49,676 bases of DNA, from assembly GCA_964503935.1 (NCBI GenBank), contig CAZDCJ010000002.1:1-49676 (forward strand). Reading direction: 5' to 3'. This document shows positions 11,986 to 48,751 of this stretch, in pieces (within the stretch, counting starts at the first letter, position 1; each line of letters opens with the position of its first letter). This DNA is from an uncultured Candidatus Saccharibacteria bacterium (lineage in GTDB: Bacteria > Patescibacteriota > Minisyncoccia > JAHIHE01 > JAGLIN01). The notes beneath the pieces were generated by a model. That model did no database searches, was not told where the DNA came from, and saw only the letters and a program-made list of their open reading frames with translations. The translations under genes were made by a program, and so were the position numbers.

Positions 11986-13445
11986 TTATCCGACCGCCGT
12001 CATAATCCGGCTCGTTGGAGTAATCGCTCGAAGGGGGCCGGCATCGATACCCGAAGGATTGACCGTATCAGATACCCAGGCATTCTGGGAAGGACTCCAC
12101 CGTCCCGCAATCGATTTTATATGATAATCTTTATTCCCGCGGTCTGCGTACAGAGGATCCGCGTTCACATCAGATGAGGAGCTGACGTTCTTGTAATTGC
12201 CGCCGACATTCCCGTACACCGGGTTGTTTTCCAGAATAAGCTGCCCTTCCGCCGTATTGTAATTGATGACGCCCTGCCCGCTCTGCGAAGCACCCCCCCC
12301 CGGACTGCCGCTCTTGTTGCCTCCGCGCTTCACGCTGTTAGTGACGATATTGTTGCGTATATGCACGTCATATTTGCCGCTCGTACTGTTTGACTGCAGG
12401 CCCAGCGATTCCAGATAGACGATTCCGCCGGCATAATTCCCGTCCAGAGTATTGTTTTCAATGACTACGTTATAGACCCCGCTCGTCACGATACCCGCCA
12501 TCCAGTCATAAGACGAATGTCAACCACAGTCGGCGATGATATTGTGGTGGATATGGACGTTCTTCACCTGGCCCCTCGTATACGAAGGGCTGTCGAATGC
12601 GACAAGCCGGATGCCTGCCTGCCAAGTGTGGTAAAGGAGGTTATTATAGACTTCTATATCATGAAGATCATCGCCCTTGCCCCCCTCTGCAGTTCCAGCC
12701 CCGGTCCGCCGGGAGAAAAATATTCGCCTTCTTTGGCATAGATAAAATTATCATGTATCCTGACGTAGCTGCTGCCGAAGAGCCGCACTCCCGCGTTGCC
12801 TCGGGTCCTTATGTTATTGTCGTATATGTCCCCGTTCTGGCATGACTGCAGAACAATAGCATCATGCCCGAGCGTATCTGCCTTGAGACCGAAGATCCGC
12901 ACATTCATGCTATATCTCACCTTTATCCCGTCGCCGGGACTGTTATGCCAATGCATGTCATAGGCCTCCAAATCATTGTACGAGATATTCATAAAATTCC
13001 TGCGGCCATCTCCGATGCCCTTATCAGAATCGCCGCGATTATTGTTATTGTAATCTCCGTCAATCTCAAATCCCCGGATCACGATCGTATTCTTGCCCGT
13101 AGAAGACTTGCTTCCGCTATTCTCGATCGATGCATCATTAAGGGATCCTTCCGGCCAGAAGCTTTCCGCAAAAGTTAGTACAGTCCCCGATTCCCCTTCG
13201 GGGGTAGTGCTGTCACCAATCCGTATGGTATTGGATGCGACATATCTCCCCTTCTTGAGATGGACGATCGACCCCGGGCTTTTTGCGGCTTCCGTGAGCG
13301 CCTCATTGATCTGCGCCTGATCGGCGCTGCCGTCGCAATTGTAATTCCCGCTTCCGTCCCTTGAGACATGATAAATAGCGGCATCGGCCGCAGGAGCAAG
13401 AGCGCTTGTCAGGACAATGACGGCAAAAGACGCCATCAAAAACAC
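11986..13445 (-). pseudogene. Secreted right-handed beta-helix (PbH1/pectate-lyase-like) repeat protein, disrupted
   Basis: Signal peptide MFLMASFAVIVLTSALAPAADA. Repeats NNIRTRGNAGVRLF, IHDNFIY, IENNTLDGN and IRNNIVTN. The frame changes near the C6/G6 run at 12680-12685, and there is an in-frame TGA at 12520-12522 (..HHNIIADCG*HSSYDWMAGIV..). Confidence 0.6.
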
Positions 13446-20974: not shown

Positions 20975-21068
20975 ATGTAGGGGCCGGACTTTGCATCTAG
21001 GAGTATAGGACTTTAGTCCGCACATTCTGGGTCCGCCAGCATGGGATAACAGCGCAGACTAAAGCCTG

Positions 21069-21722
21069 CTACTCCATTGCGGAATCAGGTTTTTTTTCAG
21101 TTGCCTCAATCCCCCGTTTTTCTTCCTCCGCTGTCTCCTGCTTCTCTGGCGCCTCGCCGCCGTCTTCATTCTTCATTATCCGTTCGGAGACAAGTTCCCT
21201 TTCCCGCATCTCCGCATACCGGGGCAGATCTTCGGCTTTTTCTATACCGAGATGCCGCAAGAAATCGAACGACATCTTGTAGAGGTACGACCGTGCATCA
21301 CTGGGATTGTCGATCTTCTCCACCAGGCCGCGGATGGCGAGCTGACGGAGTGTGAAACTCGTGTTCACCCCGCGGATTTCCTCAATCTCGGCGCGAGAGA
21401 GCGGACCACGGTAAGCGACGATAGAAATCGTCTCCAGCGCCGAGCGCGAAAGATCCCCTTCGATATCAATCTTCATCAGTTTCTCTACTGTCGGCGCGTT
21501 CTCGCCCGCCGTCACCATCTGCGCCTTATTGTCATTCACGATGATCCGCAAACCTCCCCGTCTCTCTTTGTAATCCTCAGCTAGCTGCGCTGCCGATTCT
21601 TTGAGGACGCCCTCCGTCTCCCCTGTCACTTTGCGGAGCTTCTCGAAGCTCATCGGCTCCCCCGAGACGAAGAGCAAGCTTTCCAAACGGGATTTGATAT
21701 CGCTTTCCATGGTGTTATTCAT
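21069..21722 (-). CDS. scpB: Segregation and condensation protein B
   Basis: LESLLFVSGEPMSFEKL and IVAYRGPLSRAEIEEIRGVN. ATGA overlap with scpA. Confidence 0.9.
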   Translation of the reverse strand: MNNTMESDIKSRLESLLFVSGEPMSFEKLRKVTGETEGVLKESAAQLAEDYKERRGGLRIIVNDNKAQMVTAGENAPTVEKLMKIDIEGDLSRSALETISIVAYRGPLSRAEIEEIRGVNTSFTLRQLAIRGLVEKIDNPSDARSYLYKMSFDFLRHLGIEKAEDLPRYAEMRERELVSERIMKNEDGGEAPEKQETAEEEKRGIEATEKKPDSAME

Positions 21723-35012: not shown

Positions 35013-36740
35013 TTACCTTATCGCGTCGGCCACCCTCTGCGGCACTTCCCGGTCGAACGGATCCGGGATGATCTGCTCCGGCGTCGGATTCTCGACGCAA
35101 TCCGCGATCGCCTCGGCCGCACGGACAAGCATCTCATCCGTTATCTGCTTCACTTTGTGGTCGAGCGCGCCACGGAATATTCCCGGAAAAGCCAGCACAT
35201 TATTCACTTGGTTCGGAAAATCGCTCCGGCCGCTCGCCACGATATATGCTCCGGCTTCTTTCGCCTTATCCGGCATGATTTCCGGCACGGGATTTGCCAG
35301 CGCGAAGATGATAGGCTTCTCGTTCATCGTCCTTACCATCTCTCCTTTAAGCACGTCCGGCGCGCTCATCCCGATGAAGATATCCGCTCCTTTCACTGCC
35401 TGCGCGAGATCGCCTGTAATCTTCTCCGGATTAGTAATTTTCGCCATCTCATCTTTGGACGGATTCATGCAATCCCGTCCTTCGCAGACGATTCCCTTGC
35501 TGTCCGCCATGATGATATCTTTGAAGCCATATTTAAGAAGCAGCTTTGCCGTCGCGATTCCCGCCGCGCCCGCGCCGTTTACGATGATTTTCGCATCCTC
35601 TTTCGCCGCCCCGCGGAGCCGGAGCGCGTTGATAAGCCCGGCCAGGACCACGACCGCCGTGCCGTGCTGGTCGTCATGCATAACGGGAATAGAGAGCTCA
35701 GCCTTGAGTCTCTCCTCCACCTCGAAACACCGCGGCGCCGAGATATCCTCGAGATTGATGCCCGCGAAATTGGGCGCGAGCAATTTCACCGTCCGGATGA
35801 TCTCTTCCGTGTCCTGGGTATCGAGACAGACCGGAAACGCGTCCACGCCGCCGAACTTCTTGAAGAGTATCGCCTTGCCTTCCATCACCGGCAGCGCCGC
35901 CTCCGGTCCGAGATTGCCGAGTCCCAAGATCGCGCTCCCGTCGCTTACCACCGCGACCGCGTTGCCGCGAAACGTGAGCTCGAAAGACTTGTCCTTGTCC
36001 GCCGCGATCTCCCGGCACACGCCCGCCACTCCCGGCGAATAAGCCAGGCTGAGTTCTCCCCGGTCGGTCACCGGCACCTTGGAACGGATTTCCAGTTTGC
36101 CTTTATTTTTCCTGTGGAGTTCCACCGACTCCGAATAGATGTCTTGCATATGATTTTCTTTTATCTTCAAATTAATGGATTCGCTGATTTCTTCTAATAT
36201 GTGAACTAATCTTTCTGTTTCTTCTGTATCGAATATGCACATCCTACTATCCATAACTAAAAAATTTGCGATTTCTATAATAGGTAAGCATTGCTCGTAA
36301 ATATACTCATCTTCTATACCCCACCCTACCGGTGAATAATGAATAAACCGATTCCTTAAGCCATCATTCAAGATTCTCATTGCCTCTTTATGTCGTTCTT
36401 CTGCAACAAAGGGCTTACTATCTACATACCCGCCCATACGATCAGGATTCTGTATGCGATTAAAGGCACCCAAAAACTCTATTAATTTGTTTTTTTTATT
36501 AAATACATCTACGCCCCCCCCGCTAGCACGTTTTATAGGCAAACCATCCTTTTCGTTCTCCACCCAAATTCCCTCCCCCGCAGTTCCTACAAGTGCATAT
36601 AACATTAAATGGTAAATAGCATGATGGAACGATAATACAAACCATTTCAGATTTAGGTTACTTTCCGACGGAGTTTCAGAAAGAAACTGCTCCGCTCTCT
36701 CAAGGGAATCAAAAATATTTGTCTTTTCGTCAATCCTCAA
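35013..36740 (-). CDS. NAD(P)-dependent malic enzyme with an in-frame ~197-aa N-terminal extension
   Basis: From M198: MQDIYSESVELHRKNKGKLEIRSKVPV...LSLAYSPGVA...VVSDGSAILGLGNLG is canonical malic enzyme. The extension (TTG start at 36740) is AT-rich and contains LRNRFIHY. Confidence 0.9.
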   Translation of the reverse strand: MRIDEKTNIFDSLERAEQFLSETPSESNLNLKWFVLSFHHAIYHLMLYALVGTAGEGIWVENEKDGLPIKRASGGGVDVFNKKNKLIEFLGAFNRIQNPDRMGGYVDSKPFVAEERHKEAMRILNDGLRNRFIHYSPVGWGIEDEYIYEQCLPIIEIANFLVMDSRMCIFDTEETERLVHILEEISESINLKIKENHMQDIYSESVELHRKNKGKLEIRSKVPVTDRGELSLAYSPGVAGVCREIAADKDKSFELTFRGNAVAVVSDGSAILGLGNLGPEAALPVMEGKAILFKKFGGVDAFPVCLDTQDTEEIIRTVKLLAPNFAGINLEDISAPRCFEVEERLKAELSIPVMHDDQHGTAVVVLAGLINALRLRGAAKEDAKIIVNGAGAAGIATAKLLLKYGFKDIIMADSKGIVCEGRDCMNPSKDEMAKITNPEKITGDLAQAVKGADIFIGMSAPDVLKGEMVRTMNEKPIIFALANPVPEIMPDKAKEAGAYIVASGRSDFPNQVNNVLAFPGIFRGALDHKVKQITDEMLVRAAEAIADCVENPTPEQIIPDPFDREVPQRVADAIR

Positions 36741-36820
36741 ATAAATTCCTATATGATATCTTAGTTTATACCCTTATCCTATCCCCTTTTCCGCTAAAAA
36801 TCAACAAAACTCCCGATTTT

Positions 36821-37025
36821 GTCATTCCGAAATGAGCGACTGAAAGGAGCGATTGAGGAATCCCTTGTCCCCATATCAGTTGTAGATAGGTCATTTGATA
36901 CATTACACAGTTCAAGAGATCCTTGACAGGATGACAAAAGGAGGGCTCGAAAAGATAAAGAGGGTTTCGAGAGTCGAGAAAGCAGTTCCAGCTTGCTCCT
37001 GGATTCTCGTCTTCACGGGAATGAC
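36821..37025. repeat. Composite of MITE-like elements
   Basis: gtcattccga (36821-30), aggatgac (36928-35) and cgggaatgac (37016-25). Confidence 0.55.
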
Positions 37026-37217
37026 AACCGTTCATTTATTCCTCCTCAGGAGGAACTTGCCTCGCCGAAGTCCCGGCGAAGTCGGGTGGTCTGAAAGGCC
37101 GGTGTGTTGGATTTGGAGTAGCAGACTTTAGTCTGCGCGCATTTGCATTTATTTAGCGCGAAATAAATTCCGCTATTCCAAGATACGATGCCAGATAACT
37201 TTTCCTGCCCTATACAA

Positions 37218-37241
37218 AAAGGCGCGGTAAACCGCGCCTTT
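37218..37241 (-). terminator. Intrinsic terminator of the ABC-F gene
   Basis: Minus strand aaaggcgcgg-ttta-ccgcgccttt followed by TTGTAT. Confidence 0.7.
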
Positions 37242-37252
37242 CTCTTATCAAT

Positions 37253-48486: not shown

Positions 48487-48681
48487 TCATAGTTGAGGCA
48501 TTTTACCTGCCAGGAAATCATCATAGCTGACTTCCCTTCCTCTTGGACCGATACCTGTCGCTATAAGGGAACCCTTAGATAATCGAACTACTTTAATATC
48601 ATTCCTACGTTTACGTCCAGTAAAAGGCACATGCTCGATTTCGATTCTACCAGTACGTGAATATCGAAATTCCCCTTTCCG
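48487..48681 (-). pseudogene. Start-less ORF remnant
   Basis: Open frame RKGEFRYSRTGRIEIEHVPFTGRKRRNDIKVVRLSKGSLIATGIGPRGREVSYDDFLAGKMPQL with no ATG, GTG or TTG near its 5' end. Confidence 0.3.
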
Positions 48682-48751
48682 CTAACCCTCAACAAAAAAC
48701 AAGCACTCTTGTATAATTAAGGTTACTTGCAATAACCCTTAAGATACGATC

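Follow-up and report, generated by a model that had tools for sequence, protein, structure and literature searches.

The window considered here, which is the whole 49,676-nucleotide stretch of DNA that was analysed, is contig 2 of genome G000, a 1.1 Mb metagenome-assembled genome (MAG) of 76 contigs and 98% completeness, with close relatives that bear the labels Candidatus Saccharibacteria or Patescibacteria. Its reverse strand carries at 35013..36740 an open reading frame (ORF) of 575 codons plus stop, initiated in the window allele by TTG, in which a domain resembling the HEPN ribonucleases (RNases) is followed, with no intervening stop codon, by a malic enzyme. The first 197 codons (36150..36740, reverse strand) form an AT-rich segment of foreign character which, on the evidence of its GC content, its homologues and an AlphaFold2 (AF2) model, belongs to an unannotated family made up of stand-alone proteins of ~200 amino acids (aa). 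The remainder (35013..36149, reverse strand), beginning with the ATG at 36149, was recognised from Pfam and Protein Data Bank (PDB) matches and from its orthologues as a complete small-type NAD(P) malic enzyme of 378 aa. Within the foreign segment lie a poly-G tract of eight bases (G8; 36514..36521, reverse strand; codons 74-76, SGGG in an insert loop), the length of which differs between metagenomes, and an RNxxxH motif (codons R129-N130-R-F-I-H134; 36339..36356, reverse strand) placed by an alignment of 78 family members and by the AF2 model at the C-terminal end of predicted helix 3.

The composite reading frame and the insertion site

The ORF opened by TTG at 36740 that the first-pass annotation had described was found at 35013..36740 on the reverse strand, and its proposal that a canonical malic enzyme starts at M198 was equally well founded. 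Pfam malic enzyme domains were matched at residues 214-559 (PF00390, E = 9.6e-29; PF03949, E = 1.1e-26), residues 1-197 of the window protein gave no Pfam match, and residues 198-575 (MQDIYSE...) aligned end to end with PDB entries 2a9f, 2hae and 1vl6 at E ~1e-126, the matched chains beginning, like the 378-aa orthologues, at the position equivalent to M198. The malic part is 79-82% identical to its counterparts in related genomes. Compared with the solved small-type malic enzymes (2a9f, 2hae/1vl6 from Thermotoga maritima, and 5cee), residues 198-575 are alike throughout; by way of contrast with the window fusion, the matched chains are of 386-413 aa and possess no comparable N-terminal extension.

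Calculated by window, the GC content was 0.31-0.43 over ~36050-36870 as against 0.55-0.67 in the enzyme body, and the corresponding values of total GC and of GC at third codon positions (GC3) were 0.37 and 0.35 for the extension versus 0.58 and 0.73 for the malic part. Among the 854 ORFs of the genome, whose median GC3 is 0.63, both values place the extension in the lowest 2%, in agreement with the AT-richness and foreign origin initially attributed to it. The observation of an AT-rich in-frame extension on the malic enzyme is confirmed. An open frame of 197 codons in DNA so rich in AT is not a chance occurrence, and homologues of its product are found in 419 cluster representatives (vide infra).

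A fused polypeptide is indeed encoded in each of two species and recurs in several independent metagenomes, including contigs of 9.4 kb (runs X1 and X3) and 8.9 kb (run X4) from different studies that span the junction without base differences. The fusion frame specifies junction-spanning peptides such as ENHMQDIYSESVELHR, and the N-terminal peptide of the 378-aa form from the internal start would be MQDIYSESVELHR. Alternative product lengths of 580 and 486 aa are specified by alleles in other metagenome contigs, and the database entry for the fusion gene starts at M46, giving 530 aa.

The comparison set comprised 31 related genomes, in 19 of which a small malic enzyme was present. The N-terminal domain occurred in only two of these 19 enzymes, those of the window genome and of G002, a member of the same genus. 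Open frames around the enzyme extended to 380-416 codons in the other 17, compared with 586 in the window genome and 580 in G002. Genomes G001 (same genus) and G011 have enzymes 79% identical to that of the window and carry no extension. The G002 protein (574 aa, ATG start) is 58% identical to that of the window over the N-terminal domain and 82% over the malic part, and its junction (...NNY|MQDIYSE) falls at exactly the same position. Malic enzymes in general were without the extension, yet a second species has it: the fusion is not general among orthologues, but it is not a single case either. The window genome carries only one copy of the N-terminal domain family. A weak match to the extension in G003 lay in a GIY-YIG gene region and was rejected as spurious. 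The malic enzyme gene itself is absent from 12 of the 31 relatives (including G003, G010, G024, G025, G027 and G028), one of the malic-less relatives being of the same genus and 100% complete, and because of these absences the enzyme is dispensable in this group.

Comparison of the upstream regions of the window genome, G002, G001 and G011 revealed a block, GGAATGACAAA...TTGATT-N17-TAGGAT...TATAA(T/A/C), common to all four. In the window, TTGATT-N17-TAGGAT occupies 36776..36804 on the reverse strand and is followed by TATAAA at 36765-36770; its conservation alone suggests that the block is promoter-like, and a strict consensus promoter scan gave no sigma-70 site in the region. In G001 and G011, the leaders of which read ...TTGAAATCACATG and ...ATGAAATTATATG respectively, the malic ATG stands ~15 nt after this block; the native leaders compared with the right border repeat (see below) are GAAATCACATG (G001) and GAAATTATATG (G011). 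In both the window genome and G002 the promoter-like block and leader run instead into the start of the N-terminal domain. The window leader ends ...CTAAGATATCATATA, with ATA where the native ATG stood, and this native-start triplet is ATG (36750 T>C) in contigs from run X3 and from the RNA-labelled run X16, where it opens a product of 580 aa (MGIYLRIDEK...). Directly 5' of the malic ATG, AAAGAAAATCATATG again resembles the end of a native leader.

Copies of ATCATAT(G) stand at both borders of the insert, 603 nt (201 codons) apart. The left copy, ATCATAT(A/G) (36750..36757, reverse strand), is the end of the full native leader, with ATA here and ATG in other populations; the right copy (36148..36154, reverse strand) combines, from the leader comparison, the last native-leader bases with the malic start codon. 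In this way 7-13 nt from the end of the native leader, ATG included, recur before the malic coding sequence, and the border repeat resembles a duplication of target-site type in which the start codon is comprised. The native leaders have an in-frame TGA three codons 5' of the ATG (a frame of 380 versus 378 aa), at the place of which the window has GAA and G002 appears to be two bases short, and the right-hand leader copy stops the upstream frame in neither species. The flanks on both sides of the insert are syntenic with those of insert-less relatives.

Such an arrangement would very probably have arisen by insertion, at the malic start codon, of ~600 bp of foreign AT-rich DNA comprising a near-whole gene without its stop codon. 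The event may have taken place in an ancestor of the two Saccharibacteria species, or recombination may have carried the insert from one to the other. The source would have been a gene of the unannotated ~200-aa family, which in other Patescibacteria is an accessory stand-alone gene of restriction and defence loci.

The N-terminal domain and its family

A full-library HMMER search with the extension returned 419 cluster representatives at E<=1e-3 and 75 at E<=1e-10, the clusters being defined at 50% identity and drawn mostly from Patescibacteria. The members are nearly all of 190-210 aa, matched end to end and encoded by stand-alone genes. In the alignment of 78 members W33, R129 and H134 were invariant, while K32, H39, F89, N130 and P137 were at least 90% conserved, yielding the family signature LRNxFxH(F/Y)xP, present in the window as LNDGLRNRFIHYSP. 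An AF2 model built on this alignment was all-helical and of high confidence (predicted local distance difference test, pLDDT, 93.7; predicted template modelling score, pTM, 0.91), with helices at residues 5-21, 29-50, 89-96, 115-133, 144-164 and 172-196. Neither Pfam, PADLOC nor NCBIfam assigned the window protein or the 78 members to a family, and a scan of the larger members (P0063, P0069, P0071, P0083 and others) for partner domains gave one match only, to DUF2442. Weak matches of a few members to the PADLOC candidates PDC-S19 and PDC-S64 (E 4e-5 to 2e-4) were not taken as membership.

The gene context of the stand-alone relatives is typically that of restriction-modification (R-M), with four loci in which the family member lies between hsdM and hsdS and one that is type III-like. 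In locus L001 it stands between a NYN gene that follows HsdM and HsdS itself; in L019, L020 and L021 the order is HsdM, DUF3800, a 145-aa ORF, the family member, an overlapping HsdS, PD-(D/E)XK, WYL and HsdR; in L026 it is HsdM, an OLD-family ATPase/TOPRIM, the family member, HsdS and HsdR; and in L028 three small ORFs separate HsdM from the family member, and one ORF separates the latter from HsdS. Locus L029 (1167-9240) has a type III-like Res (ResIII + RE_endonuc), a Mod (N6_N4 methylase), a 294-aa ORF and then the family member, with a serine recombinase adjoining, and in L030 (4040-7995), also with an adjoining serine recombinase, a TIR protein and a DUF5677-like protein precede the family member and a 131-aa ORF follows it. 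In L023 the family member again adjoins a serine recombinase, so that large serine recombinases adjoin three of the family loci; in L027 it is without defence neighbours. The L029 and L030 islands, which come from two Patescibacteria genomes, are candidate mobile defence cassettes. The occurrence of stand-alone homologues in R-M operons and defence islands bears out the association with defence suggested by the first-pass annotation.

The window contains no R-M system: the domain adjoins an ABC-F ATPase gene on one side and the malic enzyme on the other, and tblastn searches of the whole window genome gave no hsdM, hsdS or hsdR. Since the genome is without a detectable type I system and has a single family copy, the domain is here an orphan.

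HEPN RNases cleave RNA in a metal-independent manner that leaves a 2',3'-cyclic phosphate, the active site being built by a dimer. The superfamily is defined by an Rx4-6H motif in which the residue after R is typically N, D or H (PMC3710099). The first-pass annotation had recognised this signature in LNDGLRNRFIHYSP, and it is indeed borne there by a conserved RNxxxH, of which R129 and H134 never vary among the 78 members while N130 shows at least 90% conservation. The predicted helical unit in which it had been placed is a discrete all-helical domain of ~190 residues. The order of its helices is that of HEPN, with RNxxxH closing helix 115-133, after which come a loop and then helix 144-164, and helices 2 and 3 are set apart by an insert of 64 residues, as the HEPN definition has it (PMC3710099), the comparison being one of helix order and not of three-dimensional packing. 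An extra C-terminal helix (172-196) extends beyond the HEPN helices.

Some likeness to known HEPN proteins also recurred among matches below significance. The weak Foldseek list repeatedly held HEPN chains (E 0.9-4), namely HepT (7bxo, 6m6u), AbiV (9bj7), Csm6 (6tug) and sacsin (3o10), and sub-threshold Pfam matches were given by single members to HEPN_Cthe2314 (0.0077), HEPN_RiboL-PSP (0.011), HEPN_Apea (0.041) and DUF3644 (0.0046), the last of which overlaps the EC042_2821 HEPN family (PMC3710099). The best-fitting solved chains were those of lactococcal AbiV (9bj7; TM 0.40-0.51) and HepT (7bxo, 6m6u), defence or toxin proteins of similar size whose match to the predicted fold reached E values of only 0.9-4. 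AbiV is typically without the motif histidine (PMC3710099), unlike the present family, in which that residue is invariant.

The slot between hsdM and hsdS is the position occupied by prrC, which encodes an anticodon nuclease. HEPN genes lie inside R-M operons in at least 16 clades (PMC3710099), and with the RNases concerned (PrrC/RloC, Abi2/AbiD/F, AbiU2, ApeA and EC042_2821; PMC3710099) the family shares a small all-helical form, an Rx4H with N that ends helix 3, a long insert between helices 2 and 3, relatives located in the hsdM-hsdS slot, and the proximity of other nucleases (NYN, OLD, PD-(D/E)XK). It differs from them in giving no significant sequence or structure match, in lacking the helix-2 acid and in possessing the extra C-terminal helix, and the window domain differs further in having no R-M system and in being joined to a metabolic enzyme. 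The fusion partners of R-M-linked HEPN domains reported in the 2013 survey (Anantharaman et al. 2013, PMC3710099) are nucleases, helicases and ATPases, with no metabolic enzyme among them.

Against assignment to HEPN, and to that extent against the overall interpretation offered below, must be set a number of results. The acidic residue of HEPN helix 2 (Ex3[KR]), which many families possess though not every one, gives way here to K32, W33 and H39. Pfam, PADLOC and NCBIfam were all negative for the window protein; the PDB profile search gave no HEPN match, only spurious ones to G-alpha; and Foldseek searches of PDB and BFVD yielded no hit at E<=0.001, the best E being 0.8 or worse. The HEPN-like fold initially claimed thus received no significant match from either profile or structure searches. 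Alignment with hhalign to a home-made HepT alignment of 30 sequences returned a probability of 1.7% (P 0.028) with only the RNxxxH motifs aligned, and to a home-made AbiV alignment of five sequences a probability of 0.05%. On the basis of motif, helix topology and gene context, as opposed to homology statistics, membership of the HEPN superfamily is judged slightly to moderately favoured.

Tract variation, translation starts and selection

The poly-G tract was compared in assembled contigs, not reads, of seven metagenome runs from four studies, the contigs being otherwise identical or nearly identical to the window. Run X1 has G8 and is in frame, as are X3 and X7 with G11, which adds one extra Gly (protein P0154); X2, X4 and X6 have G10, which causes a frameshift and a stop at codon 78; and in X5 the contigs break at the tract. 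Two control tracts also varied between runs, namely C10 at 1837-1846 (C8, C9 or C10), which lies outside any ORF of at least 90 aa, and C9 at 12293-12301 (C8 in X4), which lies inside a 171-aa ORF at 11986-12501 on the reverse strand. In the whole genome there are 26 G/C tracts of at least eight bases, approximately the number estimated for random sequence of the same composition, and one A/T tract of at least nine. No match to MutS domain V (PF00488) was obtained in the 98%-complete window genome. Classical mismatch repair is probably absent from it, a deficiency that would render all homopolymers unstable, and to judge from these tracts slippage looks to be real and genome-wide rather than a device of this gene.

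The tract, of which the first-pass annotation made no mention, throws the domain out of frame in half of the populations sampled. Expression of the malic enzyme therefore cannot hinge on the fusion, and in the short term the domain is dispensable. Homopolymer contingency loci are a feature of mismatch-repair-poor bacteria such as Helicobacter, Campylobacter and Mycoplasma. The present tract is like them in being a coding tract of G8-G11, in its apparently frame-toggling differences of length and in the lack of MutS, and unlike them in that other G/C tracts vary too and that the number of tracts is near chance.

With respect to translation, a Shine-Dalgarno (SD)-like motif precedes 11% of 468 well-defined starts in the window genome, as against a background of 15%, and the insert-less orthologues of G001 and G011 are likewise without an SD before the malic ATG. 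The first-pass annotation had argued for a real fusion from an AGGAA before the TTG and from the want of a good SD before the internal ATG: the motif is indeed missing at the latter, but its absence is uninformative, since starts in this genome rarely carry one. Start regions in the genome are rich in A and T; 51% have T at -1, and a further A/T signal is centred on about -12 to -10. The start codons are ATG (86%), TTG (10%) and GTG (4%), and gene callers relying on SD motifs may mis-set starts. The context of the internal ATG matches the A/T-rich, SD-less pattern, and both start sites share local sequence; on these grounds initiation at the internal ATG is plausible. Read-through from the first site is obligatory because no stop lies between the domains.

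A scheme can be proposed in which transcription would proceed from the malic gene's own promoter-like block, a start at the first site would give a 575-580-aa protein of HEPN-like domain plus malic enzyme, and a start at the second, identical site would give the ordinary 378-aa enzyme, probably alongside the fusion. In the AF2 model of the full-length protein, one predicted helix (H172-211) spans the junction.

Comparison of the window genome with G002 gave, for synonymous (pS) and nonsynonymous (pN) differences respectively, 0.87 and 0.27 in the N-terminal domain and 0.78 and 0.12 in the enzyme, pN and pS being reported in preference to dN/dS as synonymous sites are saturated. Neither of the two genomes has a stop or frameshift in the domain, and both have kept K32, W33, H39 and RNxxxH. 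Since 197 unconstrained AT-rich codons would not remain open at such divergence, the domain is under purifying selection between species, weaker than that on the enzyme. The GC3 of the insert is 0.35 in the window and 0.26 in G002, compared with 0.73 and 0.43 for the respective enzymes, the insert having barely tracked its hosts; this pattern would fit later spread by recombination through conserved flanks better than a single old insertion.

Upstream of the promoter-like block, at 36815..37188, lies a mosaic of short dispersed repeats recognised by copy searches and depth spikes. Copies in the genome number 11 for 36815-36862, ~7 for 36997-37070, at least 22 for 37111-37144 and ~8 for 37150-37188, the units being of 25-75 nt, present at 7 to at least 22 copies per genome, and similar to units in related genomes; one hairpin-containing unit, TGGAGTAGCAGACTTTAGTCTGCGC, at 37114-37138, has an inverted copy at 21052-21076. 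An Rfam search gave nothing relevant. The repeats likened earlier to miniature inverted-repeat transposable elements (MITEs) abutting the segment are real, yet they are native to the intergenic region and not part of the insert: insert-less relatives, too, have repeat-derived sequence (the GGAATGACAAA end) 5' of their malic gene, so the repeats are not tied to the insert. A 28-nt motif had likewise been claimed as shared with a degraded island at 48.67 kb. On manual alignment, 36782-36809 and 48671-48698 match in ~24 of 29 columns with two gaps, which is not near-identity, and the motif is part of the native malic promoter-like block; a shared promoter-type motif is possible, a shared mobile-element end is not. 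Transport of the insert by flanking MITE-like repeats or by a 28-nt element end was rejected, that flank being native. Right after the stop of the ABC-F gene, at 37215-37245 on the reverse strand, a G+C-rich hairpin plus T-run (aaaggcgcgg-ttta-ccgcgccttttt), unlisted by a simple scan, is likely to be an intrinsic terminator between that gene and the malic locus.

Alternative readings and significance

The reading offered by the first-pass annotation is upheld in part. The interpretation to which we incline, by a modest degree, is that a restriction-linked HEPN-like gene was grafted onto the malic enzyme start and has been kept by selection, the fusion being encoded and often switched off. The domain would then most likely be a HEPN-type metal-independent RNase, a toxin or abortive-infection backup of restriction systems, orphaned in this genome and riding on a housekeeping promoter, and the poly-G tract, in a genome devoid of MutS, would move it in and out of frame as a dispensable contingency-type accessory function.

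Besides the matters of fold considered above, several observations pull in the opposite direction. The border repeat is short, a shared 7-mer having a chance of 0.11 and a shared 8-mer of 0.03 in AT-rich 30-nt windows of this genome. With ATA at the native start position, TTG must serve as the start in the window allele. Three of the six population consensus sequences are frameshifted in the domain, and the variation of the control homopolymers means that tract variation is not gene-specific and could partly be assembly noise. The one RNA-labelled public run with the locus consists of patchy contigs at depth 2-3, which cover parts of the gene and also intergenic DNA, and affords no clean transcript support for the long form. 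The full-length AF2 model, although both domains were modelled well, gave no confident mutual arrangement (pTM 0.65; pLDDT <50 for residues 201-257), and the unshifted GC3 of the insert, despite saturated divergence, fits a single old insertion poorly.

A number of these observations are equally what would be expected of a decaying passenger, a selfish or accidental insert at the 5' end of a non-essential gene, its upstream frame a gene remnant in course of being lost, with the malic enzyme made from its own ATG and the fusion, if produced, an irrelevant by-product. The ATA at the native start, the G10 frameshift as consensus in three of six runs, the unameliorated composition of the insert, the want of predicted contact between the domains, and the absence of the malic enzyme from 12 of 31 relatives, one of them of the same genus, all agree with such a history. 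It is less readily reconciled with a frame that has remained intact in two species at saturated synonymous divergence, with pN/pS ~0.3 and the invariant residues kept, or with the in-frame G8, G11 and ATG-start alleles of other populations, and on balance it is considered unlikely.

The N-terminus of small malic enzymes contributes to the dimer interface, and prediction of the last domain helix into the malic N-terminus (H172-211) could indicate that the domain is no nuclease at all and is instead a regulatory or scaffolding unit, an oligomerisation or ligand-sensing module that would alter malic enzyme activity and in which the R..H motif serves for binding. Such a role would accord with the failure of profile and structure searches to give a significant HEPN match and with retention of the fusion in two species. 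Nearly all of the 419 relatives are, however, stand-alone genes in R-M or defence loci with no metabolic partner, frameshifted alleles are so common that the enzyme cannot need the domain, and AF2 gives no confident interface; the proposal must be rated quite improbable.

A more elaborate version of the favoured reading, in which the locus would be a switchable immune module, with a HEPN RNase carried on a dimeric enzyme, its active site set by oligomeric or ligand state (malate, NAD(P)) and the poly-G tract acting as an on/off control at the population level in an organism now without the domain's customary R-M partner, is highly improbable; if true, it would couple abortive-infection RNA cleavage to phage-caused metabolic disturbance. 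An assembly artefact, whether DNA of two organisms joined as a chimera or an overlooked stop or frameshift, might be suspected in a 76-contig MAG with a sharp GC change at the junction and with contigs that in some runs break at the poly-G tract, but is scarcely credible when single contigs from different studies cross the junction unchanged, a second species has the same junction, and synteny with relatives lacking the insert is seen on both flanks.

The literature searched yielded no account of a HEPN-like domain fused to an enzyme of central metabolism; neither the fusion architecture nor the family is described in the libraries and literature searched, and the biology conforms to a theme already known. 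Should the fusion prove incidental, the locus would amount to a thoroughly documented curiosity. The scarcity of SD sites, the missing MutS and the variability of G/C tracts have a bearing on gene calling and reading in this Saccharibacteria genome. The locus provides a base-pair record of a defence gene grafted onto a housekeeping gene, in which a duplicated initiation site keeps both products encodable. The wider family, of at least 419 clusters, combines a confident predicted fold for which there is no significant solved relative with the lack of any significant match in Pfam, NCBIfam, PADLOC or PDB, and its presence in the PrrC slot of type I operons makes it a candidate new R-M-linked defence effector.

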